A stretch of DNA of 64,000 bases from Puniceicoccales bacterium (GTDB taxonomy: Bacteria; Verrucomicrobiota; Verrucomicrobiia; Opitutales; JAIRKQ01), in assembly GCA_031266345.1 (NCBI GenBank), contig JAISBD010000007.1:4377-68376 (forward strand), read 5' to 3'. Under the pieces are notes generated by a model. That model was given only the letters and a program-made list of their open reading frames with translations. It did no database searches and was not told where the DNA came from. This document shows, one piece after another, positions 16,801-52,127 of the stretch; position 1 is the first letter of the stretch, and each line of letters opens with the position of its first letter. The position numbers and the translations under genes are program-made.

Positions 16801-19800
16801 AGAATGCTACCATCGATGGCGCTATCAATATGATTAGCAGTTGCAGTGGGTTGAAGAATGTCACCATAAGTGGCCACGAAATTAGTGTCTTTGGCTCATC
16901 CGACGACGTGGGCACCATCACGCTTGGCCTCGGAGGAATTGTAAATCTATGCGAAGCTTGCGCTGCCAGTGGGTTTGACGCTGCCATTGCCGATGTGCAA
17001 AGCAAAATGGTGTACATCGATCCAGCAACGGGGAGAACGTACAGAGGGGCAAATGGCGAAATTGTGCTCGACGCAAGTAATTATCCATGGAAGGGAAGCG
17101 AGATTGGCACTTTAATTTTGGATGGAGCCGATACTTTGTCAATATCCGTACTCGACAATGATGGCACATACGAGCCTGGGTCGGGGATAAATGTTCTTGG
17201 AAATGCTTCAAATCACGGCAGATTTGTGGCCAATGCTGGAACAATCACTCTCTTGGATAGCGGAGGAGAGGTATTGAACTTGCAGGACGCAAGCGATGTC
17301 GACATCACCATTGTAAATGCACTGGGAGCGGGTGATGACCCTAATTTACTCGAGGAAATGATTAGCCTGGAAGGTCCTAGAATTGGCGATTATAGGTATC
17401 CACTGTTTTTGACACTATCCAATGAAGTAGCAGATAGTAATACCACTTTGGTGCTAGATTATACCGCCAATGCTTTGAAAGTGAAGAGCGAAGTTGCCGA
17501 TCCCGGGCTGGCTCTTGGGGGCAAGAGCACATTGTATTGCGTCGCCAATGCGGATGCGAAAATAACTTTCGTTGACCAACCGGGAGCTTTGAAAAACATT
17601 GTAACGGGCGAATACGATGGTGACTCACGCTATGAAGCTAGCGATGGTTGCATGATTGCGGCGAGGGTGAGTGGCACTGCCATAGATATTGCCGCAGGTG
17701 GCGGTGCAGCGGTGGTTCTTGATTTTCAAAATGATCCCGCCGTAAGGACGGCAATTGCAGACCCTGAGGCAGAGGATGGATACATTCAGGCACACATTTA
17801 TGCGTACAGTGTGGATGGCGATGCCGTTGGCCTAAGCCTTGACGATGGGGTGAATTTAAATATCGCCCCCGCGAAAGAAGAAGCCGATGCCTGCTACCGC
17901 CCCACTATAGCGGCTTACAAAAAGGGGAATGACAGCGGTGCTGCGGTGGTAATTAGAACTTCAAGGAGAAATGTCGGCAGTGGAATAGAATCCACCATCC
18001 CCATGCTACTTCACGCATCATCATCAGGGTCTGATCACTACCCTTCTTCTAACTCCGTGGCGGCCGTACTCGGTGCGGCAAGCGGAAATAAATGGGCCAC
18101 AGTGGGCGGGACGAACAATTGGGCTCTGGGAGATAGCAATACCCTAGGTGCGTCATCATCTTCTTCTTCCAATTCTTCCAATTCCGTGGCAACGGTACTC
18201 GGTGCGGCAAGCGGAAATGAAGGGGCCACAGTGGGCGGGACGAACAATTGGGCTCTGGGGGATAGCAATACCCTAGGTGCGTCATCTTCTTCTTCTTCCA
18301 ATTCTTCCAATTCCGTGGCAACGGTACTCGGTGCGGCTTGCGGACAGGGCGCTGCCACAGTGAACGGGGAAAACAGCTGGAATTTGGGGGACGACAATAG
18401 CCTAAGCGTTGTGTCAACATCATCAAAATCCAATTCCGCAGCAACGGTATTCGGTGCGGCAAATGGAGAGCAAGTGAATGCATGGGATAGGGAGCAATTT
18501 AAGACTACAGTAAGCGGGACAAATTTTTGGACCTTGGGGAACGGCAATACCCTGAGCGCTGTGTCAACATCATTAGGGTCTGATAACTACTCTTCTTCCA
18601 ATTCCGCGGCGGCAGTATTCGGTGCGGCAAACGGAGGGGAAAGGGGACAGCAAAGTACCATAATGATCGGGACAAATGTTTGGACCTTGGGGGATGGCAA
18701 TATCCTGAATGCTGCGTCATCATCATCATCACTATCACAATCATCTGATCACCATTATATTACTTCTTCTTCCGCGGCGGTGGTATTCGGTGCGACGAGC
18801 GGATGGGGCACTGCCACGGTGAACGGGACGAATACTTGGACCCTGGGAAGCGGTAATATCCTGAACGCTGCGTCATCTTCTTCTTCTTCCAAGTCTTCCA
18901 ATTCCGCGGCGGCAGTATTCGGTGTGGCTAGTGGAAATGACAGTGTCGCAATGGAGGAAAAAAACAGCTGGACATTGGGAGATGGCAATATCCTGAATGC
19001 TGTGTCATCATCACAATCATCTGATTATCAGCATGTTCCCAATTCCGCGGCGGCAGTATTCGGTGCGGCAAGCGGAGGGGAAAGGGGACAGCAAAGTACC
19101 ATGATGATCGGGACAAATGTTTGGACATTGGGGGACGGCAATATTCTGAATGCTGCGTCATCATCACTATCACTATCACAATCATCTGATCACTATTATA
19201 TTACTTCTTCTTCCGCGGCAGTGGTATTCGGTGCGGCTTGCGGAGGGGACAATGCCGTAATGAACGGGGAAGACATCTGGACATTGGGGAAAGATAGTGT
19301 TTTAAGTGCTTATTCCACTTCCAGCTCTCTTAGTACTTCTTCTTCTGCGGTGGCAATATTCGGTGTGGCAAATGGAGGATACTTTACCCTCAGCATGGCA
19401 AGCGGCATAGCAGTGAATACAAACGGTAGTCAAACATTGGGCGCTCTGGCGTACAATACGGATGGCGACATCTCCTATGGTAAAATAAACGCCTTCGGTG
19501 CGGATAACACGGATATGCACGATACTTATACGTCGGATGATTACGATTGTGGAATACTTGAGGAGGAGGAGGAGGAAAATCCGGACAACACTGATGAAAC
19601 AAGTAAGGGTAAAGAAACAACTATGAGTAGAAATTTGATCGGCACTGCGATCCCCGGCAATCACTTTGGTTGGCGAGTGGGAATATTTGCCGCAGGAGAG
19701 AGTATTGTGGAAGGTGAAGAGCCTGAGCAGAAAACCATCGCCTCCGCCGTGGAGACGGACTCCACCGTAAACATCTTCACCGCAAAGCTGGGAAAGACGA

Positions 19801-22229
19801 TAAATTTTGGAACAGACGAAGCCGTGATTACCCTTGGAGCTAACCAGGGATTCATTCCGGACCAACCCATTGTAATAACTTCCGAGGGTATGGAAAAGTA
19901 CATAGGAGAGCACTGGGAGGACGGATGGAAGAGTGGAGATGACGGAGAACGTGTGCTGGAAATAATGGGACAATTCTTCTATGAAAAATTGGAGGCCTGT
20001 GGGTTATCAGAGGTCAATATGTCATCACTGTTTCTGAACCGGGAGGCAATTCTTGCGTCAATTGCAGAACTTATAGAAAATGGCAGCACAGCTATCGCAA
20101 AGGACCCATTCCCCGCCCGCGCATTTGCCCTGGGTAACGACTTCAAGATCCACGTCGGCGGCAGGGTGAATGAGGCACAAGCTCCCTATCAGAGGGGACC
20201 AAATTACGGCTTCGTACCAGTGGCTCCGAAAACGGGAACATCGAACACGGTGAACATCTTCGGCGCAATCAGCAAGGGAAGGAATTCCAGCGGCACGGCC
20301 GGTAGCAGCCTGACCATCGATAGCGGCTGGACCGTTAACGCCTACGGCCCCGTGGGAGACCTCGCTTCCATCGACGTCAAAAATGGCACACTCAATACCT
20401 ATGGCAATCTCAAAAATATCGCCATTGATGGCGGTATCGTCAATGCCTATGGCACTTCCAACGGCATCGGCACATTGCGCCTCAGAAATGGCGTGCTCAA
20501 TTTGGCCCAGTGCGATGATAATGGTGCGGAAAATGCCCTTGATCAGATCGCTGAAAACCTATCGATCACCGATCCAGAAACAGGGGTGACCTATGGAAAG
20601 TCGAAAAAAGATGGGGATGAAAGCCCGAAGAGAACGGTGGTCATCGATGGTGCGGCTAAAGCGACCTATTTAGCAAATTTTGGCACAGCCGGTAAATTAG
20701 TCCTCAACGACGGCGATGTGTTGGAGTTTCACTTCGATTCGAGACAAAAAGCCCACGATGTGGTGTCCACCGGCGATGGGTTCGAGCTCGCCAAGGGATA
20801 TATCACCGTGGAAAGCCACGGCAGCCCCCCCATTGATCTCCAAGGCGGCACTTTCAAGTTTGTCGACGATGCCACCGGGAAAGAAGGTGTCCCCTCAACC
20901 GCCGATATCCTCCTCATTCGCTGCTCGGATGAGGAGCCAAATGCTGCGATTAGTCTTAATTCAGACAAATTTAACTTTGCACTTGCTTCCCTTGAAACTA
21001 TGGGGGAATCTGTGCTCCCGGAAATGGAAGAAGCGCCGGAAGGAAAGGAAAAGAGAAGCTTGCGGGGCTTGGAGAGGGAAAGCATGCTGTGGGATTTGGA
21101 AAGCATCGGCGAACAACCTTCCCTCTACGAAATCGACAAAGTCGCCACAAATCTGGGCTTGTGCTACTACGGCGGCACCGGTTTGGTGCTCTGCAGCGAA
21201 GATGAATTCCCGAGGGTCGTGAGGCAGCTCAGCTCGAGGCCATCGGAATTCGCCCAATCCCACGCCAATGGCGAACTGGCCACCAGCACCACGGCAAGCA
21301 CACTCATGGTGCAAGACGCGATAGCAACGCGATTTACCGACGTCAAAGGCAATGGCAATGACCCGTTCCTGCTCGCCGTCGCCGGCCATGCCCACCAGGG
21401 CGAAATCGGCGGGTTTGGCTACGGCAGTGACCTGTATGGCCTCACCGGCGGCGCCGATTATCTCTGCAACTTGCAGGGCGGGCGCTATCTTCGTCTGGGG
21501 ACGGCGCTGGGCTACATCAGGGGCGACACGAAATTCAACGGGGCGGCCTCCGGCCTGAAAAAAACCGCCAGGCAAAACATGTACTCCCTCGCCCTATTCG
21601 GCGCCTACGAGGCCTTCGATCTCCAAAATTTGAAGACCAATGTTAATTTTTACACCGGTCTGGGATATGGCTCCAACAGGCTATTCAGGATGGACGCCAA
21701 CAGTCATGCCTTCGGCGCTAAGTTGAAGTCCAACAACGCTTTCTTCTCCCTCGAAGTGATCAAAAATTTGTACGCTTGGCAGGGCACCCAGTTCGGCCTA
21801 TGGCTGAAGGCGGACTACAATCACATCAAGCAAAAGGGCTATTCCGAGACATCCCCCAACGGCGGCACCGAGTGCGACCACGTGTCCAGGATGGACTTTA
21901 ATTTTCTGACCACCGTCCTCGGCATCAATGTCGAAAAGGAGATCAACCATCCTTCCCGGCCTGACCGCCGGCTGCGCCTGTACGCGAAGGCTGGTTGGAG
22001 CTGCCAAGCCGTCAGGGAGCATTCCAAGGGCGTGGCCTGGATAGAGGGGCTGCAATCGGGCAACTTCACACCAACGCTGGGTTTCCCCTCCCGCCATGGA
22101 GCGGTGTTCGTCGCCGGATTCCGCAACAAATTGAATGCCCATTGGGACATCATCGGCCAGTGGAACGCCTACTTCAGCGAGGATCAATCCAACAACATTT
22201 TCTCCCTCGGCGCCGGGTATAACTTCTAA
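13854..22229 (+). CDS. Giant autotransporter adhesin-like protein (Pmp-like repeats; type Va). It has an extended signal peptide, two tandem passenger modules and a C-terminal beta-barrel.
   Basis: 2791 aa. N-terminal extended signal region ...AAVAAICFAALGFAPELRA/DP. 11 + 10 repeats of the type [S-rich]-AAAIFGAASGNGTATVDGENSWTLGDGNTLNATV. The last ~300 aa form a classical autotransporter barrel (alternating aromatic strands, ending ...NIFSLGAGYNF). Confidence 0.9.
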   Translation: MKKYFSFFGDLISGVKKTFNGLVGGAKKVFGSLKGGNRMAANMVFNGLKVVNRAAVAAICFAALGFAPELRADPGEDGSSIGVLTSAKTWDTDDHNGYIFTGDDSISGEGTAVNITAGEAFKIFTINFQNDPSVKTDIAGPEVKDEYIQAHIYAHNTDGDSDAVGLSLGDGVNLTITAAEKEADACYRPTIAAYKSGSSSGAAVIIRAPEASVGNEINVAVPVIFHATFAPTVAVLSELSAPSPSNSAAAIFGAASGNDTATVGGINNWTLEDGNTLNATLTSDTAAPTLVSTDSYYSYYSCSNSAAAIFGAASGNGTATVDGENSLALGNGNTLNATVILDTTVLASASINSYANLHPYFAAAIFGAASGNGTATVDGENSWRLGDNNILNATVISDARALAVSNSYYSYYSSPYFAAAVFGAASGYGTATVNGTNTWALGNGNNLNATVADFSYSSLYFAAVIFGAANGNGTATVDGTNTWTLGSDNNLSTPSPFSSPDSYPNSAVAIFGAASENGNATVNGENSWTLGGDNTLNATAATNSNSVAVIFGAASGGYSSAAAVEGTNNWTLGNGNNLSAPSPSSSPYSSSAAAIFGAASRNGTALVNGTNSWILGDNNILCVTASSSSATAIFGAASGGYSSTATVNGANSWTLGGSNILNATAVNSSPDSSSAAVIFGAASRDGTAAVEGENSWTLGDDNTLNATVAANSNSAAVIFGAASGSYSNTALARSVAINTNGSQTLSALAYASSAVDARVNAFGAANTDVRAYTAAEAEAAAAGYGAAEGDSAAEGDSAAESYGAAEGDPVPGAFGWRVGIFATGEDILEGGESEQKAIAAAVETDSTVNILAAKLGKAVDLTTDPSKAIVTLGASQGISSGDYAHAFALGNDFKIYIGGRVDPNKDKTSAEDDYGFVSVAPKEGTTNTVNIFGAISRGTHSSGTNGFNLAIDNGWVVNVYGPMEDFASIDVKNGTFNFYGRLENATIDGAINMISSCSGLKNVTISGHEISVFGSSDDVGTITLGLGGIVNLCEACAASGFDAAIADVQSKMVYIDPATGRTYRGANGEIVLDASNYPWKGSEIGTLILDGADTLSISVLDNDGTYEPGSGINVLGNASNHGRFVANAGTITLLDSGGEVLNLQDASDVDITIVNALGAGDDPNLLEEMISLEGPRIGDYRYPLFLTLSNEVADSNTTLVLDYTANALKVKSEVADPGLALGGKSTLYCVANADAKITFVDQPGALKNIVTGEYDGDSRYEASDGCMIAARVSGTAIDIAAGGGAAVVLDFQNDPAVRTAIADPEAEDGYIQAHIYAYSVDGDAVGLSLDDGVNLNIAPAKEEADACYRPTIAAYKKGNDSGAAVVIRTSRRNVGSGIESTIPMLLHASSSGSDHYPSSNSVAAVLGAASGNKWATVGGTNNWALGDSNTLGASSSSSSNSSNSVATVLGAASGNEGATVGGTNNWALGDSNTLGASSSSSSNSSNSVATVLGAACGQGAATVNGENSWNLGDDNSLSVVSTSSKSNSAATVFGAANGEQVNAWDREQFKTTVSGTNFWTLGNGNTLSAVSTSLGSDNYSSSNSAAAVFGAANGGERGQQSTIMIGTNVWTLGDGNILNAASSSSSLSQSSDHHYITSSSAAVVFGATSGWGTATVNGTNTWTLGSGNILNAASSSSSSKSSNSAAAVFGVASGNDSVAMEEKNSWTLGDGNILNAVSSSQSSDYQHVPNSAAAVFGAASGGERGQQSTMMIGTNVWTLGDGNILNAASSSLSLSQSSDHYYITSSSAAVVFGAACGGDNAVMNGEDIWTLGKDSVLSAYSTSSSLSTSSSAVAIFGVANGGYFTLSMASGIAVNTNGSQTLGALAYNTDGDISYGKINAFGADNTDMHDTYTSDDYDCGILEEEEEENPDNTDETSKGKETTMSRNLIGTAIPGNHFGWRVGIFAAGESIVEGEEPEQKTIASAVETDSTVNIFTAKLGKTINFGTDEAVITLGANQGFIPDQPIVITSEGMEKYIGEHWEDGWKSGDDGERVLEIMGQFFYEKLEACGLSEVNMSSLFLNREAILASIAELIENGSTAIAKDPFPARAFALGNDFKIHVGGRVNEAQAPYQRGPNYGFVPVAPKTGTSNTVNIFGAISKGRNSSGTAGSSLTIDSGWTVNAYGPVGDLASIDVKNGTLNTYGNLKNIAIDGGIVNAYGTSNGIGTLRLRNGVLNLAQCDDNGAENALDQIAENLSITDPETGVTYGKSKKDGDESPKRTVVIDGAAKATYLANFGTAGKLVLNDGDVLEFHFDSRQKAHDVVSTGDGFELAKGYITVESHGSPPIDLQGGTFKFVDDATGKEGVPSTADILLIRCSDEEPNAAISLNSDKFNFALASLETMGESVLPEMEEAPEGKEKRSLRGLERESMLWDLESIGEQPSLYEIDKVATNLGLCYYGGTGLVLCSEDEFPRVVRQLSSRPSEFAQSHANGELATSTTASTLMVQDAIATRFTDVKGNGNDPFLLAVAGHAHQGEIGGFGYGSDLYGLTGGADYLCNLQGGRYLRLGTALGYIRGDTKFNGAASGLKKTARQNMYSLALFGAYEAFDLQNLKTNVNFYTGLGYGSNRLFRMDANSHAFGAKLKSNNAFFSLEVIKNLYAWQGTQFGLWLKADYNHIKQKGYSETSPNGGTECDHVSRMDFNFLTTVLGINVEKEINHPSRPDRRLRLYAKAGWSCQAVREHSKGVAWIEGLQSGNFTPTLGFPSRHGAVFVAGFRNKLNAHWDIIGQWNAYFSEDQSNNIFSLGAGYNF
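14580..16050 (+). repeat. Passenger repeat array A (11 FGAAS-type units, ~120-150 bp each)
   Basis: Units read directly from the translation: AAAIFGAASGN[DG]TATV[GD]G.N.W.L.[DG].N.LNAT.., separated by Ser/Tyr/Pro-rich linkers. Confidence 0.9.
18040..19400 (+). repeat. Passenger repeat array B (10 units, poly-Ser linkers, includes near-identical DNA copies)
   Basis: SSSSSSNSSNSVATVLGAASGNEGATVGGTNNWALGDSNTLGA occurs twice in tandem, near-identically at DNA level (~18060-18300). A second ~120-bp block (AAAVFGAA.GGERGQQST.MIGTNVWTLGDGNILNAASSS) recurs at ~18605 and ~19045. Confidence 0.9.
21290..22229 (+). other. Autotransporter beta-barrel translocator domain of the giant protein
   Basis: ...GGADYLCNLQGGRYLRLGTALGYIRGDTKF..., YSLALFGAYEAF, NVNFYTGLGYGSNR, FGLWLKADYNH, terminal GAGYNF (C-terminal Phe). 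Confidence 0.85.
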
Positions 22230-46031: not shown

Positions 46032-46366
46032 GTTCAAATTTTGGGCCTGCGCTGCTACCATGGCGTTGCAAAGCGACTGTAAAATATTTTGAGACTAGAA
46101 CCACTCACAGGTTAAGGGAAATAAGCAGGGGAAAATGGGATAGGGGTGGAAGAAAAGAAAGCATAGCCAGTCACGCGTGGTAACGCGGCGCAAGTTTTTC
46201 AATTTCCTAGAAATTGGTAGGTACTTTTGTTGGCTTCTCCTACGAATTTTAGCTCCGGGAATGGTGTACCCCTTTGGCATATTCTTTTCATTTTATCCTC
46301 CTTTGCTAGCTCTTTTTAAATCCAAACCCTAGCAGAACTGTAATGTAAAATTTATTGAGAACGTCA

Positions 46367-46418
46367 ACGCAGGCAGAAGTACCGCCTGCGTGCCGTGAAT
46401 AGGGGAATGACTTCCCCT
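46367..46418 (-). terminator. Two tandem hairpins downstream of the 440-aa repeat-protein gene (possible terminator)
   Basis: aggggaa-tgac-ttcccct (46401-46418) and acgcaggc-agaagtacc-gcctgcgt (46367-46391). No strong T-tract follows on the minus strand, so function is uncertain. Confidence 0.35.
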
Positions 46419-46428
46419 GAATTTTAAA

Positions 46429-47751
46429 CTACCATTTTTGGTGGCGATAAAACTTGGAATATTTCGTTTGTGATTTTGAGATTACCGGTACCCGCTTAGC
46501 GCTTGGCACCTGCTTAGCGTCGGGTGTCTGCTTAGCGCCGGGTGTCTGCTTAGCGTCGGGTGTCTGCTGAGCATCTTGCCTAAACATCTTCTCAAACCAT
46601 CCTTGCTTAGCATCTTTTTGTGGAACTGGCGCTTCCTCACTTTTTGAGGTTGCCGGCACCTGCTTAGCGTCTGGCGCCTGTTTAGCGTCTGGTGTCTGCT
46701 TAGCGTCTGGTGTCTGCTGAGTATTTTTGCTAAACAGCCTCCCAAACCATCCTTGCCCAGCATCTTTTTGTGGAACTGGCACTTTCTCACTTTTTGAGGT
46801 TTCCGGTACCTGCTTAGCGTCTGGTGTCTGCTTAGCGTCTGGCGTCTGCTTGGTATTTTTGCTAAACGGCCACTTAAACCATCCTTTCCCAGCACTTGCT
46901 TTTGATTTAGGTGAACTTGGACCCTTAGCAGATGAGTCTTTGGATGAACTTTTAGCAGTGGAAGCAGGTTTTATTCCAAAGTATATGGCAACAGGTAAGG
47001 CGATAGCAATGGCAGCGGTCAAAATATACTTTATTACTTTCCTCCTATTCCATGGCTGAGCTCCGCCGGATGGCTGAGTTTCGTCGGATGGCCGGGTTTC
47101 GTCGGATGGCCGAGTTTCGTCGGCTGGCCGAGTTTCGTCGGATGGCCGAGCTCCGCCGGATGGCTGAGTTTCGTCGGATGGCCGAGTTTCGTCGGACGGC
47201 TGAGTTTCGTCGGATGGCCGAGTTTCGTCGGCTGGCCGGGTTTCGTCGGACGGCTGAGTTTCGTCGGATGGCCGAGTTTCATCGGATGGCCGAGTTTCGT
47301 CGGCTGGCCGAGCTTCGTCGGCTGACCGGGCTTCACCCCCAAACTGGGGTACGCTAAATGGCCGGGCTTCACCCCAAAACTGGGATACGCTAAATGGCCG
47401 GGCTCCACCCCCAAACTGAGTTTCGCCAAATGGCCGGGCTCCACTCCTAAACTGAGTTTCGCCAAATGGCTGGGCTCCACTCCTAAACTGAGTTTCGCCC
47501 TGCGACTTAGGATTAGCTCTGCCCTGCGACTTAGGATTAGCTCTGCCCGATGGCTTGAGCTTAGCTCTGCCCGATGACTTGGCCTCCGGCAACCGAACAC
47601 TCAATTGAGTCGACGCCACACGCTTTGAGGTTCCCGGTTCTTTAATAGCTGCCGACTTTTTAGGTCTCACTTGAGGAGATCGAACAGGGCTGCTGTTTTG
47701 AGAGTCATACATTTTACCACTTCTTGTTATTATTGAAGATCCAGTTTCCAT
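46429..47751 (-). CDS. Hypothetical single-pass membrane repeat protein with nested tandem repeats and three GWFxxxF[SR][KQ] motifs
   Basis: 440 aa. N-terminal GETQFRSGA[QR]PF-type repeats, ~15 E[TA][RQ]P[SA]D hexapeptides, a TM (VIKYILTAAIAIALPVAIYFGI), then GKGWFKWPFSKNTKQ / GQGWFGRLFSKNTQQ / KQGWFEKMFRQDAQQ. Each motif is flanked by (QTPDAK)n. Confidence 0.6.
   Translation of the reverse strand: METGSSIITRSGKMYDSQNSSPVRSPQVRPKKSAAIKEPGTSKRVASTQLSVRLPEAKSSGRAKLKPSGRANPKSQGRANPKSQGETQFRSGAQPFGETQFRSGARPFGETQFGGGARPFSVSQFWGEARPFSVPQFGGEARSADEARPADETRPSDETRPSDETQPSDETRPADETRPSDETQPSDETRPSDETQPSGGARPSDETRPADETRPSDETRPSDETQPSGGAQPWNRRKVIKYILTAAIAIALPVAIYFGIKPASTAKSSSKDSSAKGPSSPKSKASAGKGWFKWPFSKNTKQTPDAKQTPDAKQVPETSKSEKVPVPQKDAGQGWFGRLFSKNTQQTPDAKQTPDAKQAPDAKQVPATSKSEEAPVPQKDAKQGWFEKMFRQDAQQTPDAKQTPGAKQTPDAKQVPSAKRVPVISKSQTKYSKFYRHQKW
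47054..47330 (-). repeat. 18-bp tandem repeat (~15 units) encoding the ETRPSD hexapeptide
   Basis: The plus strand reads ggc[ct]gagtttcgtcgg[ac]t reiterated head-to-tail. It generates spurious ORFs in several frames (47034..47600 -, 47052..47357 +). Confidence 0.9.
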
Positions 47752-48579
47752 TTTTTTCCTTATCTAATTGTTAATAATCTTTAAAAGAAAACAAAGGTGG
47801 TTTGATGTCAAGCAAAATTTGGTAATTTTTAAAAAACAAAAAGTATGGAAATGGAAAAATTCCCTGCTAAACGGTGGCAAACGTCGCGGGCATTTGAGAA
47901 ACATAAAATTACATATTTTCAGCAATTGGCGTGGGAGGCCATGCGCTATGGCAGGCACATTCATGCTTTCCCTCCTTCCGCTCGCATCGCCCATTTCCTT
48001 TTTATGCCCCATCTTTCCTTAATTTGTGAGCCTTGGTTTCAATTTACAGAAATTCCGAAGGTGCATATGCGGGTGCAATTCCCCAAACTCTCGGGCTATA
48101 TTATTATAGATTTATAAATTTAGTAGTATAATTATTATGGGCTGTTAATATGTTAATTGTTAGTTCAACTCATTATATTTAAAATGGTTATGAAAATTTT
48201 AAAATTGAATTTTTTGGTGAATATCCCCGCGGCACTGTGTTAACAACTGTGAAAAAGTCTATGTTATTTAAGGATGTTAGCATATTATTAACATGTTACC
48301 AACAAGCAATGTGAATAACTTTTTCAAAATACCAAATTTTCCCTGGATATTTGCATTTTTTTCTTGAAAATTATCCAATCTAGCTTTAGATGCAGGAAAG
48401 ATTGCGAAAGGTAGGTGATGACACAACATCCAAGTTTTACAAGGGGCGGTGCTGCTACGAATAAACGTAGTGTGCTGAAGAGGTACGAGCGCGTGGATTT
48501 GCTAAAAAAGCGGGGGCAATGGGGGGCTTCCAGCCTGGTTTTGGGAATGCCAAAAACGAAGCCCGAGGAGTGATGTTTC

Positions 48580-49329
48580 GTGGGCCGATCCGAATTTTTG
48601 TTCTTTCCTTTTAGAGAGAAAGGGCGGTGGTGTTCTTTGAAATTTTTTAGTCTGTTTTTGCTGCTGTGCCTGTGTGGCTGCAAGCGGGAAACTACTCTGG
48701 GTGATGAGGAGCTATCGGATCCGGAGTATCTCTTTGCCGTTCAACAAATTAGGGAAGGAAACGAAGATGGTGCTTTGCTCTCATTTTTGCATGTAATAGC
48801 TAGAAAGGAAAGCACAGCAAATTCGCATTTGCATGTCGGGCGCATATATTTGGATAGGCAAAATGACCCGATCTATGCCATTTATCACTTCCGTGAGTAT
48901 TTACTGCGGGCAAAAAATTCGAAAGAAGCCGTTGTTGTCAAACAGCTCATAGACACTGCTAAAAAAAAATTTATACGCAGTTTGCCTGGACATCATTGCG
49001 AGCTAAATGCTCACGTGGAATTGATGGAGGTCGCTAGGCGGCTACGGGAAGAAAATATCGCTTTGAAGCACAGGTTGAGGGGCTTTGAAGAACGGTGCAA
49101 ACTGTTGGAATCCCGATTGGAAGGCGAATTTCCGGCTGTTGCCACCGGCAAACATTTTGAGGGGGAGAGGCAAATCAGGCATGCCGTGCGAGTGGGGGAT
49201 ACGCTGTCGAAGATAAGTCAAAAGTATTACGGTACGCCGGCGCAGTGGAAGAAAATTTTTGAGGCCAACCAAGATGCGATCCCATTTCCCCATGCTTTGA
49301 CCGTGGGGCAGGAGTTGATAATTCCTTGA
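48580..49329 (+). CDS. LysM-domain lipoprotein with TPR-like/coiled-coil middle region
   Basis: C-terminal LysM: HAVRVGDTLSKISQKYYGTPAQWKKIFEANQDAIPFPHALTVGQELIIP. No ATG start. GTG at 48580 or, better, in-frame TTG at 48637 gives MKFFSLFLLLCLCGC (lipobox L-C-G-C). Confidence 0.75.
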   Translation: MGRSEFLFFPFREKGRWCSLKFFSLFLLLCLCGCKRETTLGDEELSDPEYLFAVQQIREGNEDGALLSFLHVIARKESTANSHLHVGRIYLDRQNDPIYAIYHFREYLLRAKNSKEAVVVKQLIDTAKKKFIRSLPGHHCELNAHVELMEVARRLREENIALKHRLRGFEERCKLLESRLEGEFPAVATGKHFEGERQIRHAVRVGDTLSKISQKYYGTPAQWKKIFEANQDAIPFPHALTVGQELIIP

Positions 49330-49340
49330 ATATGAGCATA

Positions 49341-52127
49341 TTATAGCCATCTAAATAGTATGATATTAAATCGGCGCCCAAGCTTTTTATTTACTTCGGA
49401 AAGGTTTACACTGGTGGGATCGTTTTCACCTGCGTTTGCAAATGTTGGCATGCGTTGCACTACGACTTCGCAGCACCTTGCATGGTTCCCCCATGAACCC
49501 TTTGCTGCTATTTTAAACGTGTCACCGCGGACGGTGATGAAATGTGCAAGTGCTTGTAAAACATCAGCTTGGCTTAAAACATTTTCCAGTCCTTCCTCCA
49601 AGTACCCGCTGGCCGCTCCATCGTTGAACCAAGCTTTATTTTTGCTAAAAGAGATGTAGTGTTTGCAAGTACCACGATTAATATTTGAGTCAAAAATGGC
49701 TTGTTGAAGCAGACCGCAGGTTGCGCCATCGGCCGACAAACGCCTGTTGATGAACGCGCTCAAAGTTGGAAAAAGTGCTTGCCGTTTTACTAGGGTGGCA
49801 ATATTTTTGGCGAGAATTCTCACATCGTACCTGGAAAAAGTGGCACATTGATTGGCATTTGCGCGGTAAATTCTCGGAAAAATTATGTCGCCGCGATTGT
49901 TTGTTCTTGAAGATAGATAGGCTTCCCAGGCTTCTTCGCAGGTGGAATGCACGTTAAAACTGCCCTTTATGAGCAGGGTTTCCGGCTTTATTTCCGTGTC
50001 CAAAATTTTAAATCGCCGATTAACCAACTTATTATTTGCCCTATTTAGGGTCGAGCAGAAGAAGTTGTTAAAAAAGGTTTCGTTCAAAAGATAGGCGTAA
50101 TCGAACAGGGACTCCACCTTGCAATGGGACGGCCAAATGCCCTGGGGGACGTTTTGAAATGTCGTGTAATTTGTTGGTATGTAAGGATTAGGACTGGAAT
50201 TGCCCAGGCATGTGCTTGGCAAATATCCCAGCGGTGCCCAATTTACGTGCCGCAGGGTAGCGACGCTTAAAACGCCGTGGTCGCGGCTCGGAACGTCGAA
50301 TAGCACCAAGCCATCCAGGTAGCGCAGCAGCTGCTGGTCGAATGAAGCTTTGCTGTCCGTGAAGATTGTCTGCCAGGACCAATTAGCAGCTATGTTTCCC
50401 TGACCAAAAAATATGGAAGATGGGTCTTGGAAAGCAGTGCGATTGGCGTAGGGAGCGCGGGGGTTAGCAAAAGCTAGCCAGCGGATACCGGTCATCGCTT
50501 GGGCACCTTCGATGGTGCCAATTTTCATGGCGGCGGACAGGGTAAGCAGCAATTTTTCATTTTCCGCCGGCTGGAATGTAAATGTCAAATTTTGATTAGC
50601 ATTTGCCGGGGTGAGCTGGGCAATTTCCTGCAATATTTCCTGCGTGGGTCGGTGCGTTAGCCGGATATAAAATTCTTGCCAATTGCGGGCTTGGGAGCCA
50701 TTTTGGTCCGTGCATGATATGGTGAAACTTGAATAATCCGATGCCAACATGTCAGTTTTTATTTGCAAGCAATTGTCGCAATCCCCTGCTGCGGAGATAG
50801 CTCTATCCGTGGGAGATAATTCGGTGTCTAGGGGCAGAGAGAAGATTTTCACCTCCCCCGCCTTGAAGGAATCCCTAAAATTCAGCACAAATATTGGCCG
50901 CAAATGCCGCTCAATTTCCTCTGCGCACAGCGGCAGGGTTAAAATTTTTTCTGGGACGTTTGGCTGGCGCGCTGTCCCTTTGATTGTTAGGCAAATTTTG
51001 CTGTCATTATTTCGTGCTGCAATGAGCGCATTTAATTGATAATCAGCCTGCTGCAACGATATGTTATGGGGGTTCCACAGGGAATATTTGGGACAAATTT
51101 TTATGGCCAACTTATCGTCGATTATGGCTGCTGATATGGAAAAACTAAGCTGGGTAACGATGGGATAAATGCCGTGCTGCACAGATGCGCCCAGGTCGTC
51201 TCCCAAATTGTGCAGGGTTCTCTGGGAATAATCGACCAAATACTGCGGACGATAGAGGGGATAAGTTGGCCTGACTGGGATCTCTTTGCCACTTATTTGA
51301 TTTTTTAGGCGGAAGAAGGATTGTAAAAATTTCCACGTGGGCGGGGGTGCCGGCAAGGACGCTTTCCCCTCGAAAACATAGGCATTTGCCGGAAAGTCTG
51401 TTTCCAACAACCAGGTCGATAGGTCCGTTTTCAAGCCATTGAGCGAAGATGGCACCCCATGGGAATGCAGGGTGTAAGAATCGGAATGCTGTGCTATTCC
51501 TTCCCCCACTGTGCCATCTAGGAGCGAAAATTGTTCCAAAAAATCAATGTTTCCACGCACCATTTCACTCTGATTTTTAGGGGAAAAAATTGCCGCAACG
51601 CGCTTATCTCCCGAGCATTGTGGGCACAGGAGTTGGACATAATCATCCCTCGTATCGTCTTGCAAAGACAGGTCAATTTTTTGCGATTCGTCTTGAATGG
51701 AAAATTTCCAATGGAATTTATCCGCGGCTATGCGCATTTGTGAATCGGGTTTTTCCGCTGCCTTGCCCAAACTTCCGGCATCGTAATCCGCGGTGAGCCA
51801 GCGCGAAAATTTTATAGCATATTTATCGTCATTTTTAGATGCGTGCCATATGCCGATGTCATTGCCGTTTAGGAAGTTATCGCCGTAAATATTGCTTCTT
51901 TTGGCTGAAATTGCGCCATCCGGACCGGCGGATTCCTGCAGGCGTGCCAGTGCAATTTTCAATGCAAATTCGGCGGTCCGCTTGGCGAGTTTTTCGGAAA
52001 AACTTTTTCCTAACTGGGCATGGTAGGCTAAATTTTGGTATGCCATTGCGCACATGAACAGGGCCAGCATAGCCGTGGCGTTGATTACGAATAGTAAGGC
52101 GAAACCGCGATGTTTAGGTGGCGACAT
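49341..52127 (-). CDS. Large (928-aa) hypothetical protein with a PilX/GspK-type N-terminal anchor
   Basis: MSPPKHRGFALLFVINATAMLALFMCAMAYQNLAYHAQLGKSFSEKLAKRTAEFALKIALARLQE has the R-G-x-A-L + hydrophobic helix + A..AE.AL..A...L pattern of the PilX_N/GspK N-terminal domain. The remaining ~860 aa are unrecognised. Confidence 0.55.
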   Translation of the reverse strand: MSPPKHRGFALLFVINATAMLALFMCAMAYQNLAYHAQLGKSFSEKLAKRTAEFALKIALARLQESAGPDGAISAKRSNIYGDNFLNGNDIGIWHASKNDDKYAIKFSRWLTADYDAGSLGKAAEKPDSQMRIAADKFHWKFSIQDESQKIDLSLQDDTRDDYVQLLCPQCSGDKRVAAIFSPKNQSEMVRGNIDFLEQFSLLDGTVGEGIAQHSDSYTLHSHGVPSSLNGLKTDLSTWLLETDFPANAYVFEGKASLPAPPPTWKFLQSFFRLKNQISGKEIPVRPTYPLYRPQYLVDYSQRTLHNLGDDLGASVQHGIYPIVTQLSFSISAAIIDDKLAIKICPKYSLWNPHNISLQQADYQLNALIAARNNDSKICLTIKGTARQPNVPEKILTLPLCAEEIERHLRPIFVLNFRDSFKAGEVKIFSLPLDTELSPTDRAISAAGDCDNCLQIKTDMLASDYSSFTISCTDQNGSQARNWQEFYIRLTHRPTQEILQEIAQLTPANANQNLTFTFQPAENEKLLLTLSAAMKIGTIEGAQAMTGIRWLAFANPRAPYANRTAFQDPSSIFFGQGNIAANWSWQTIFTDSKASFDQQLLRYLDGLVLFDVPSRDHGVLSVATLRHVNWAPLGYLPSTCLGNSSPNPYIPTNYTTFQNVPQGIWPSHCKVESLFDYAYLLNETFFNNFFCSTLNRANNKLVNRRFKILDTEIKPETLLIKGSFNVHSTCEEAWEAYLSSRTNNRGDIIFPRIYRANANQCATFSRYDVRILAKNIATLVKRQALFPTLSAFINRRLSADGATCGLLQQAIFDSNINRGTCKHYISFSKNKAWFNDGAASGYLEEGLENVLSQADVLQALAHFITVRGDTFKIAAKGSWGNHARCCEVVVQRMPTFANAGENDPTSVNLSEVNKKLGRRFNIILFRWL

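Follow-up and report, generated by a model that had tools for sequence, protein, structure and literature searches.

To our knowledge, the membrane-targeting sequences (MTSs) described so far are single and terminal and stand on folded cytoplasmic proteins. The MTS of MinD has a weak affinity and binds only at a valency of at least two (PMC6803595). For bactofilin, whose MTS reads MFSKQAKS with the consensus MFSKKKK, phenylalanine and lysine are needed, the affinity is low and the sequence works only when arrayed; the phenylalanine inserts, the lysine contacts lipid, and binding takes place without a stable helix (PMC12448750). The protein treated here, called A below, has 440 amino acids and carries three short islands of the type GWFxxxF[S/R][K/Q] within a largely repetitive sequence. 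It is encoded on the reverse strand at 46429..47751 (stop codon included, ATG start, from the list of open reading frames) of a 64-kb stretch of DNA, the window. A second repeat protein of this window, B, is encoded 36 kb away at 9008-10756 and is annotated at NCBI as 'hypothetical protein LBJ94_00940' of a Puniceicoccales MAG; it served for comparison.

Repeats were located with Tandem Repeats Finder (TRF), with 50 as the minimum score. No more than three genes of the window contain tandem repeats, and in A, where all arrays lie far above the threshold, they make up about 70% (69%) of the sequence. All features of A are on the reverse strand. The protein begins with a unique segment (amino acids 1–59, 47575..47751) which has no signal peptide, is basic and is predicted to be disordered with AF2 pLDDT values below 50; the net charge of amino acids 1–100 is +13. 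A perfect 24-bp repeat of 2.2 copies encoding GRANPKSQ follows (47497..47548, 100% matches), a fifth array that an earlier note on this DNA had missed. Next to it lies a 36-bp array of 4.8 copies (47326..47499, 92% matches) with one phenylalanine per about six residues, encoding GETQFRSGA[QR]PF and degenerate copies thereof, in agreement with the roughly five copies of a 12-residue unit counted earlier. The third array consists of 15.0 copies of 18 bp (47052..47321, 87% matches, score 400) and has a net charge of -16. The previous count of about 15 units thus stands, but not their uniformity, as 13 units encode DET[RQ]P[SA] and two encode GGA[RQ]PS rather than DETRPS. Removal of an internal 18 bp from the 36-bp unit gives the 18-bp unit; across the junction of this deletion 15 of 18 nucleotides agree. 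Exact repeats in the 18-bp array reach at most 41 bp, and k-mers of 55 or longer all occur there only once.

The C-terminal part is built from a 150-bp higher-order repeat of 2.3 copies (46505..46851, TRF score 547, 87% matches), each unit of which holds one GWF island, two to three copies of Q[TA]P[DG]AK, and QVPxTSKSExxPVPQKDA. Inside these units 18-bp arrays encoding QTPDAK are nested, at 46510..46572 in unit 3 and, as sister arrays, at 46655-46718 and 46810-46851 (89-95% matches). Three nested repeat systems around one transmembrane helix had been proposed. True nesting is confined to the QTPDAK arrays within the 150-bp repeat, whereas the N-terminal arrays are adjacent and mutually related. 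Likewise, the three GWF copies said to be followed by QTPDAK and PVPQKDA blocks are indeed present, starting at amino acids 290, 334 and 384, but the third lacks PVPQKDA and decays into a unique tail. As the arrays are in-frame and near-perfect, slippage, which had been suggested for the 18-bp array, is plausible. The spurious open reading frames expected from the repeats were found as well, with 188, 137, 110 and 101 amino acids in other frames. The only hint of a variable copy number comes from the k=31 assembly of run SRR14710922, with breaks at 47087 and 47519; repeated 31-mers explain the former break but not the latter, and the Logan contig L055 starts at 47519, within the 24-bp repeat.

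The single transmembrane helix that had been claimed for this low-complexity repeat protein is well supported as a prediction. Amino acids 242–260 (YILTAAIAIALPVAIYFGI, 46972..47028) have a Kyte-Doolittle 19-residue mean of 2.15, the maximum of the protein, and AF2 places a helix at amino acids 233–257 with a pLDDT of about 87-90. This helix is the sole confident element of the model, in which 336 of the 440 residues have a pLDDT below 50. A is thus predicted to be a single-pass (bitopic) membrane protein with intrinsic disorder on either side of the membrane. Its orientation, as read from the charges, is ambiguous. The immediate flanks, NRRKVIK (+4) on the N-terminal and KPASTAKSSSKDSSA (+2) on the C-terminal side, would favour a cytoplasmic N-terminus (N-in), whereas over 25 residues the C-terminal side is the more basic one and the tail from amino acid 261 to 440 carries a net charge of +19, both of which point the other way.

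The three islands lie in this tail. Island 1 is GWFKWPFSK (amino acids 290–298, 46858..46884), island 2 GWFGRLFSK (334–342, 46726..46752) and island 3 GWFEKMFRQ (384–392, 46576..46602). They form the minima of Wimley-White interfacial energy in A, with values from -2.7 to -3.5 kcal/mol. Island 1 is the most favourable stretch of the protein (-3.4 to -3.5 kcal/mol) but contains a proline and has a low hydrophobic moment (muH) of 0.23; island 2 (-2.7 to -3.3 kcal/mol) and island 3 have moments of 0.61 and 0.66, about 2.5 standard deviations (z~2.5) above the protein-wide muH of 0.31+-0.13. Within the islands AF2 models helix for four residues of island 2 only (335–338) and for none of islands 1 and 3.

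Searches of Pfam, NCBIfam, PHROGs and PADLOC yielded no real family match for A. The only match in NCBIfam, to the XPZ region of the IgA-binding BAC protein of group B streptococci (GBS; NF038253), scores 21 bits against a curated cut-off of 1700 and covers the proline-periodic region alone, which is too low for a member of this family. A sequence search of the PDB gave nothing beyond one low-complexity match, and a word-indexed search of 5.8 billion proteins gave no homologue. An exhaustive phmmer search of 1.84 billion representatives returned 227 matches. In each of the 150 listed the best-matching stretch centres on the low-complexity DETRPS array; a few of these alignments continue over the transmembrane helix, but all stop short of the GWF repeats. 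All eight matches inspected were unrelated repeat proteins. A metagenome scan found only two loci (L056 and L057), both low-complexity. The conserved acyltransferase gene next to A was used to find related MAGs of Puniceicoccales and Opitutales; tblastn of A against the loci L002-L007 gave no match, and in the three MAGs read at the syntenic slot (L003, L004 and L006) A is missing, other genes following directly after the acyltransferase. The slot of A is a synteny break-point and a variable position of the genome. By sequence comparison A is an orphan, for which the search of about 1.8 billion representative proteins revealed no ancestor.

From these features we propose, with about even confidence, that A is a lineage-restricted, disordered bitopic membrane protein which arose to some 70% by in-frame tandem-repeat expansion and carries weak, multivalent islands for binding to the membrane interface. 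Its N-terminal half (amino acids 1–232), made up of a basic tip and three related arrays ending in the acidic DETRPS array by the membrane, would most likely be a flexible spacer or brush of changeable length. The helix at amino acids 242–260 would anchor the protein, and the basic tail would present the three islands with the proline-rich QTPDAK hexapeptides as spacing. Each island may act as a weak binder of the membrane interface, with tryptophan and phenylalanine inserting and lysine or arginine touching anionic head groups, and three of them on flexible linkers could yield avidity as do the targeting sequences of the MinD and bactofilin type. Several points argue against such a function of the islands. 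The AF2 model has no helix in islands 1 and 3, and island 1 combines its proline with the low hydrophobic moment. A periplasmic location of the tail would weaken the analogy to cytoplasmic MTS peptides, and the known peptides are found at protein termini rather than inside proline-rich repeats.

The alternative that survives best, possible though rather doubtful in our estimate, is that A is a variable repeat protein facing the cell envelope. The transmembrane helix would then be a signal-anchor with the N-terminus inside and the C-terminus outside, and the basic, proline-rich tail would extend through the periplasm like a spacer of the TonB or TolA type. The GWF islands would have the outer membrane, peptidoglycan or a partner as their target, and the arrays would allow fast variation in length under pressure from phages, hosts or predators. 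The charges immediately flanking the helix agree with this orientation. From what is established on membrane insertion by Sec and YidC, export of an N-terminal domain of 240 amino acids is difficult when a signal peptide is lacking, which likewise favours a cytoplasmic N-terminus. The proline-rich spacers with their regular period are reminiscent of XPZ and TonB-like linkers, the 21-bit match to BAC being the only one in NCBIfam, and the gene occupies a genomic slot of variable content among envelope genes encoding an Amidase_3 protein, a LysM lipoprotein-like protein and a PlsC-type acyltransferase. These neighbours, however, are on other strands and in other transcription units. Furthermore, the charge of +19 makes the tail unfavourable for export, and a folded C-terminal domain of the TonB_C, OmpA or SPOR type is lacking.

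The earlier note had suggested that A and B form a paralogous motif family; in full, this would mean that they share a G-[FW]-F-basic...F-S-[KS] motif as well as origin and function. We consider this unlikely. The pattern G[FW]F...FS[KS] is literally present in both proteins and in no other open reading frame of the window, and finding two such frames in one window has a probability of P=0.045 under shuffling. The regular expression was defined post hoc, though, and 0.3 open reading frames per window are expected to contain it by chance. Both proteins are orphans of one genome and have aromatic-basic islands between proline- and charge-rich spacers with a hexapeptide period of the form xxPDxx (QTPDAK in A, EQPDGT in B), and in both the islands are Wimley-White interfacial minima outside hydrophobic segments. 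In B there are five of them, PGFFR[KR]xWNxxxxCFSSxK, with acidic proline-rich spacers; they measure 17 residues as compared to nine in A, where the spacers are basic, and the distance from GxF to FS is 9-10 residues in B but three in A. A Smith-Waterman comparison against global shuffles yielded z~4, reached by 1/1000 shuffles. Against nulls which keep more of the sequence this signal faded. The score of the region was 105 compared to 85 for the reversed sequence and 80-88 for shuffles of local composition (p=0.04-0.10), and a repeat-aware null gave p=0.09. At the level of the motifs, for which comparison with shuffled sequences had been named as the decisive control, similarity did not exceed chance. 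A hidden Markov model (HMM) of the five motifs of B missed the C-terminal region of A entirely while shuffles scored higher, the reverse model of the motifs of A searched against B gave p=0.23-0.40, and the p-values of the HMM tests overall ranged from 0.23 to 1.0. Unit-to-unit Smith-Waterman comparisons mostly had z<2, and eleven of the 15 had z<2.2. As the copies found in either protein arose by recent duplication (units of 150 bp in A and of 141 and 177 bp in B), the eight instances represent two independent lineages, and the comparison is one against one, not three against five.

Kinship found no support outside the motifs either. There is no similarity of the DNA, blastn-short giving chance matches of 9-12 nucleotides only, and the unique regions of the two proteins do not align. 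B, unlike A, has a helical C-terminal domain of 230 amino acids with a glycine-rich hydrophobic segment, modelled by AF2 as all-helical at a low mean pLDDT of 57, and its codon usage is normal (0.229 as compared to 0.002 for A). A word-indexed search with B retrieved B itself only; the same search with its C-terminal domain found nothing and missed even the parent protein, so this negative result is unreliable. Shared composition and periodicity explain the region score, and the likeness is one of architecture and composition; homology is not demonstrable, and the family link put forward earlier is not supported.

It is also conceivable, though very improbable, that A is no functional gene but a chance or decaying reading frame spanning tandem repeats, or else a proto-gene of very recent origin that has no function. 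The codon log-likelihood of A is 0.002, higher than in any of the other five frames yet unusually low, as the neighbouring genes score 0.227+-0.042 (n=24) and the lowest of them 0.117. The repeats, at 69% of the sequence, also hold the other frames open for 101-188 amino acids, and homologues, from which constraint could be read, were found nowhere. The differences between repeat units show no bias to synonymous sites and are mostly non-synonymous. In a collection of 15 billion proteins, which does contain the neighbours of A from the same NCBI contig, the product of A is absent with any of seven start codons, as are all 17 candidate products across the open reading frame (several frames and alternative starts) and, making 19 candidates in all, one open reading frame just upstream and one start variant of the LysM gene.

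On the other side, with each array collapsed to one unit, the frame of A has no stop in 210 codons, compared to 5-15 stops in the other five frames, and from the base composition such an open frame would occur by chance with P~6e-6. It is the only frame which crosses all three unique segments, and it stays open through the repeats. A Shine-Dalgarno-like AAGGA (47757..47761, reverse strand, read from the sequence) is located 5 nt upstream of the ATG, preceded by an AT-rich intergenic region of 830 bp with 29-38% GC, and the hydrophobic helix of the protein is clean, 19 residues long and flanked by charges. Both halves of A were called by a gene caller on independent Logan contigs 100% identical to the window, and by arithmetic on NCBI accessions four annotated CDSs lie within the 3.3-kb interval containing A. 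A is therefore very probably a real gene, restricted to one uncultured gut-type Verrucomicrobial (Puniceicoccales) lineage. An internal start was considered and rejected: AGGAGG at 47046-47041 precedes an in-frame TTG at 47022 by 18 nt, a spacing too long, and the resulting product of 197 amino acids beginning at the transmembrane helix is not on record. Thirteen nucleotides downstream of the stop codon a 5-bp GC-rich hairpin is found (46402..46416, not assigned to a strand), which was scored on the forward strand and whose tail on the reverse strand is not T-rich; it might, on weak evidence, be a bidirectional terminator between convergent genes.

Only a faint chance is given to the idea of a clade-restricted set of repeat-born 'sticker-and-spacer' proteins, of which A and B would be the first two members and which would tether, bend or organise the membranes of this PVC bacterium by multivalent aromatic-basic islands on disordered proline-rich linkers, convergent or very diverged copies of one module, with A transmembrane-anchored and basic, B acidic with a helical, Gly-zipper-like C-terminal domain, and A in addition a tractable case of a gene born de novo out of an 18-bp repeat. 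Other readings were dropped. For an FG-nucleoporin-like reading, the 36-bp array with five FG or FW dipeptides in 58 amino acids is too short a stretch to judge by. A known RNA element or a CRISPR-like array is not at hand, as no Rfam family matches at E<=0.1 and the repeats are head-to-tail without spacers. A multi-core RiPP precursor, with short conserved cores between spacers, was discarded because the window has no maturase, protease or transporter nearby.

If expressed, A would be a clean natural case of a membrane protein built almost wholly by stepwise tandem-repeat expansion, from a 36-bp to an 18-bp unit and with another 18-bp unit nested in a 150-bp unit. Studies of how orphan genes are born and how disordered regions evolve in an uncultured Verrucomicrobial lineage could then make use of it. 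Should the GWF islands bind to membranes, the principle of weak MTSs acting by multivalency would extend from oligomeric cytoskeletal proteins to one repeat-bearing chain. Failing that, A is a hypothetical low-complexity protein of an ordinary kind; the paralogous family, which would have been the more interesting claim, is unsupported. For practical purposes, the locus breaks k=31 assemblies, and its four spurious other-frame reading frames should stay uncalled by annotators.

Among known proteins, the phmmer matches P0003, P0075, P0115 and P0020 have hexapeptide arrays resembling xxRPxD or TKPxD directly before a transmembrane helix, as does A. The resemblance is one of composition only and convergent. 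Their domains (kinase, surface proteins) are unrelated, and a GWF tail is found in none of them. With the EP/KP region of TonB, with TolA and with the streptococcal XPZ region of GBS BAC, A shares a transmembrane anchor and an extended, charged linker of periodic prolines, but its period is six rather than two to three and a terminal globular domain is lacking. Its helix starts as late as amino acid 242, Pfam detects no TonB_C or TolA domain, and the tail is predicted to be disordered to its end, which sets A apart from envelope spanners of this type. The Phe-Ser-Lys core of the bactofilin MTS recurs in A as ...LFSKNT and ...PFSKNT, with ...MFRQDA at the third island; the bactofilin motif, however, needs a free N-terminal Met-Phe and a bactofilin domain, whereas the FSK tripeptides of A are internal and Pfam finds no such domain. 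Compared to the targeting sequences of MinD, FtsA and MreB, which act from the terminus of soluble cytoplasmic proteins, the islands of A are internal, are triplicated within proline-rich repeats, contain a proline in one case and stand beside a transmembrane anchor of their own; they share no sequence homology with these, and their lipid binding is putative. In their build they are partly alike, with a length of 9-11 residues and hydrophobic residues at i, i+1, i+4 and i+5 accompanied by lysine or arginine. The C-terminus of E. coli MinD, KGFLKRLFGG, is comparable with GWFGRLFSK of island 2, and while the MinD sequence is effective at two or more copies, A holds three on one chain.

A minus-strand open reading frame at 46429..47751, beginning with ATG, specifies a protein of 440 amino acids, and five repeat systems were detected within it by Tandem Repeats Finder, all on the minus strand. 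These are a perfect 24-bp repeat of 2.2 copies (47497-47548) encoding GRANPKSQ, a 36-bp array of 4.8 copies (47326-47499) encoding GETQFRSGA[QR]PF, an 18-bp array of 15.0 copies (47052-47321) encoding DET[RQ]P[SA] and two GGA[RQ]PS variants, a 150-bp higher-order repeat of 2.3 copies (46505-46851), and three short 18-bp QTPDAK arrays nested within the 150-bp units. The tail carries three aromatic-basic motifs of the form GWFxxxF[SR][KQ], referred to here as GWF islands, at amino acids 290, 334, and 384. The reading frame, arrays, hydrophobic segment, and three islands described in the earlier note were thus recovered, as were its long spurious reading frames, the repeats holding other frames open for 101-188 amino acids. 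The perfect 24-bp repeat had however been overlooked, only one pair of the arrays said to be nested truly is, and the third island lacks the PVPQKDA block ascribed to all three. Throughout the window tandem repeats occur in just two further genes, that of a 582-aa repeat protein (9008-10756, minus strand) and a giant 2791-aa reading frame (13854-22229, plus strand). The latter contains 120-249-bp tandem repeats at 14587-16043 and 18044-18391 and gave no Pfam or NCBIfam match.

Deleting an internal 18 bp from the 36-bp unit gives the 18-bp unit, with 15 of 18 nucleotides identical across the junction, and the GGARPS variant agrees with the latter half of the 36-bp unit in 13 of 18. The N-terminal arrays form one diversifying repeat family, and these unit relationships suggest that most of the protein arose step by step via repeat expansion. 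Across the three 150-bp units the stretches GGATGGTTT, encoding GWF, and TTTAG are nucleotide-identical, and the three intervening codons differ between any two units. Two Logan contigs of a k=31 assembly of run SRR14710922, 100% identical to the window, end at 47087 and resume at 47519, so that 47088-47518 with the 18- and 36-bp arrays is lost. Repeated 31-mers account for the break at 47087. The one at 47519 lies inside the perfect 24-bp repeat, where the window has no repeated 31-mer, and possibly stems from copy-number heterogeneity in the reads; slippage at the arrays is plausible. Exact repeats in the gene reach 41 bp at most, and k-mers of 55 or more each occur only once, so that the copy numbers seen here can be resolved by a large-k assembler.

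Searches of Pfam, NCBIfam, PHROGs, and PADLOC yielded no real match, the only family match (21 bits versus a cut-off of 1700) being to GBS BAC, in its Pro-periodic XPZ region, and the PDB gave a low-complexity match only. Among 5.8 billion proteins a word-indexed search found no match; negatives of this kind are to be read with caution for short or unusual queries because the same kind of search with the C-terminal 229 amino acids of the 582-aa protein missed that protein itself (P0001), although it is in the database. With phmmer, run exhaustively over 1.84 billion representatives, 227 matches and no same-frame product were obtained. In the 150 listed, the best stretch centred on amino acids ~140-235, the DETRPS array, a few alignments extended over the transmembrane helix, and none reached the GWF repeats. 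Eight that were inspected are unrelated repeat proteins, among them surface proteins carrying ETKPS repeats and, from actinobacteria, kinases or membrane proteins whose ARPAD repeats adjoin a transmembrane helix. A metagenome scan retrieved two low-complexity loci. The nearest genomes are Puniceicoccales/Opitutales MAGs with 64-76% identity for the adjoining acyltransferase. In three of them the conserved block closes with thymidine phosphorylase and this acyltransferase, and synteny stops exactly past it (L003 10642-11957; L004 5298-5419; L006 10636-12395), with different genes following: a 574-aa protein, gatB, or a 485-aa protein and a giant autotransporter-like reading frame. This slot seems to vary across the clade. 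In L003 it is a 1.3-kb stretch devoid of reading frames of at least 100 amino acids, and L006, an Opitutales MAG, encodes a 2624-aa repetitive, autotransporter-like product at 12633-20507 near the syntenic acyltransferase. Parts of the 440-aa protein found no match by tblastn in L002-L007. With no homologues and different genes in the slots of the MAGs, the gene lies where synteny breaks off and is, as far as sequence comparison tells, an orphan restricted to its own lineage.

For the hydrophobic segment YILTAAIAIALPVAIYFGI (amino acids 242-260) the Kyte-Doolittle average is 2.15. Single-sequence AlphaFold2 was confident only at a helix from 233 to 257 (pLDDT ~87-90) and gave 336 of the 440 residues a pLDDT below 50, a model of a disordered chain pinned by one transmembrane helix. 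Charge is strongly partitioned, the net values being +13 for amino acids 1-100, -16 for the DETRPS array, and +19 for the tail (261-440). The most favourable Wimley-White interfacial segments are the GWF islands (-2.7 to -3.5 kcal/mol); the helical hydrophobic moment of islands 2 and 3 is 0.61-0.66 versus a protein mean of 0.31+-0.13, and island 1, which contains proline, has 0.23. The charges immediately flanking the helix (+4 on the N side, +2 on the C side), together with the absence of a signal peptide, would favour an N-in/C-out topology. An envelope-facing, length-variable spacer protein with its tail outside fits much of the data and is a minority reading, though a substantial one. A cytoplasmic tail would instead be favoured by its charge of +19 and by the greater basicity of the C flank over 25 residues, and would be well placed to bind the anionic inner leaflet.

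The earlier note had also proposed a paralogous motif family with the 582-aa protein. Within the window only these two proteins match G[FW]F.{2,12}F[SR][SKQ], a regular expression derived from themselves, which is expected in 0.30 reading frames per window after shuffling (P(>=2)=0.045) and which, in the other loci fetched, occurs singly in ten reading frames that represent three distinct sequences. The eight motif instances amount to two independent observations, since the copies within each protein are recent duplicates (150-bp units of 87% identity; 177- and 141-bp units of 80-95% in the 582-aa protein). Smith-Waterman comparison of the tail with the repeat region of the 582-aa protein scored 105 versus 61.7+-10.7 for global shuffles, 85 for the reversed sequence, and 80-88 for shuffles preserving local composition (p=0.04-0.10); a repeat-aware null gave p=0.09. 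Single-unit comparisons mostly remained at z<2, the few higher scores being due to "GWF" and a hexapeptide proline periodicity (QTPDAK versus EQPDGT). A hidden Markov model of the islands of the 582-aa protein did not detect the 440-aa protein, the reciprocal model gave p=0.23-0.40, the two genes share no DNA similarity, and the spacing from GxF to FS is 3 residues versus 9-10. By the criterion that the note itself had set, the family link is refuted as a statistical claim, and true paralogy is improbable. The remaining likeness is one of architecture, aromatic-basic islands in Pro-rich charged spacers. The 582-aa protein, likewise an orphan whose sole database match is itself (NCBI LBJ94_00940, "MAG: hypothetical protein"), has five 17-aa PGFFR[KR]xWNxxxxCFSSxK islands between acidic spacers and an all-helical C-terminal domain of 230 amino acids, in which a Gly-rich hydrophobic segment, IAIGTAASVAGMFGMGQGVHQVGTAVMGIL, resembles a glycine zipper and has a Kyte-Doolittle value of only 1.27. 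Its gene is convergent to mlaE-mlaF (7102-8993) and adjoins lpxI (10831-11673).

Because repeats trivially lengthen open frames, coding of the 440-aa protein was assessed with each array reduced to one unit. Its own frame then stays open across 210 codons (P~6e-6 from base composition), the other five having 5-15 stops each, and is the only one to cross the unique segments 1-59, 233-287, and 420-440. AAGGA lies 5 nt 5' of the ATG, the upstream 830 bp is AT-rich (29-38% GC), and a small hairpin lies 3' of the stop codon. Accessions MDR1255505 (acyltransferase) to MDR1255510 (928-aa reading frame, 49341-52127) and locus tags LBJ94_01065 to 01090 imply four annotated coding sequences in 46032-49340 (3.3 kb); none of 19 candidate products tested around the gene was present in a collection of 15 billion protein sequences. 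Codon usage is best of the six frames yet atypical, with 0.002 bits per codon versus 0.227+-0.042 for 24 neighbouring genes and a normal 0.229 for the 582-aa protein. Differences between the repeat units show no enrichment at synonymous sites, a pattern consistent with young repeats that offers no sign of purifying selection. All in all this is probably a real coding gene, and a non-functional reading frame or proto-gene, with which the codon score and unit differences could be reconciled, is very unlikely given the openness of the collapsed frame. An internal TTG start (47020-47022, minus strand), yielding 197 amino acids from the transmembrane helix, is unlikely as AGGAGG 18 nt upstream is too far. 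This perfect AGGAGG (47041-47046, minus strand) encodes Arg-Arg, a sigma-70-like match lies nearby at 47009-46980, and the product would resemble a signal-anchored or secreted GWF-repeat protein.

The unusually long upstream spacer (47752-48579) separates the gene from a divergent gene for a LysM-domain protein (48580-49329, plus strand) whose N-terminus, LLLCLCGC, is lipoprotein-like and whose middle part is a coiled coil. Within the spacer lie a 51-aa reading frame (48418-48573), called by a gene caller on the Logan contig, and several sigma-70-like matches distributed over both strands. The exact 249-aa LysM product was found on the Logan contig only, which suggests that the NCBI record uses another start.

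The 440-aa protein is of a familiar kind, the disordered membrane or surface proteins that are made of tandem repeats and specific to one lineage, and stands out by an unusually transparent repeat-expansion history and a putative multivalent interfacial-binding tail. In the proposed mechanism each GWF island would be a weak interfacial membrane binder, and three islands on flexible linkers would provide avidity. This proposal draws on analogy with two known membrane targeting sequences (MTS): that of MinD is weak and works only at a valency of at least 2 (PMC6803595), and that of bactofilin, MFSKQAKS, requires its phenylalanine and lysine, is of low affinity, and becomes effective only as an array on a polymer (PMC12448750).
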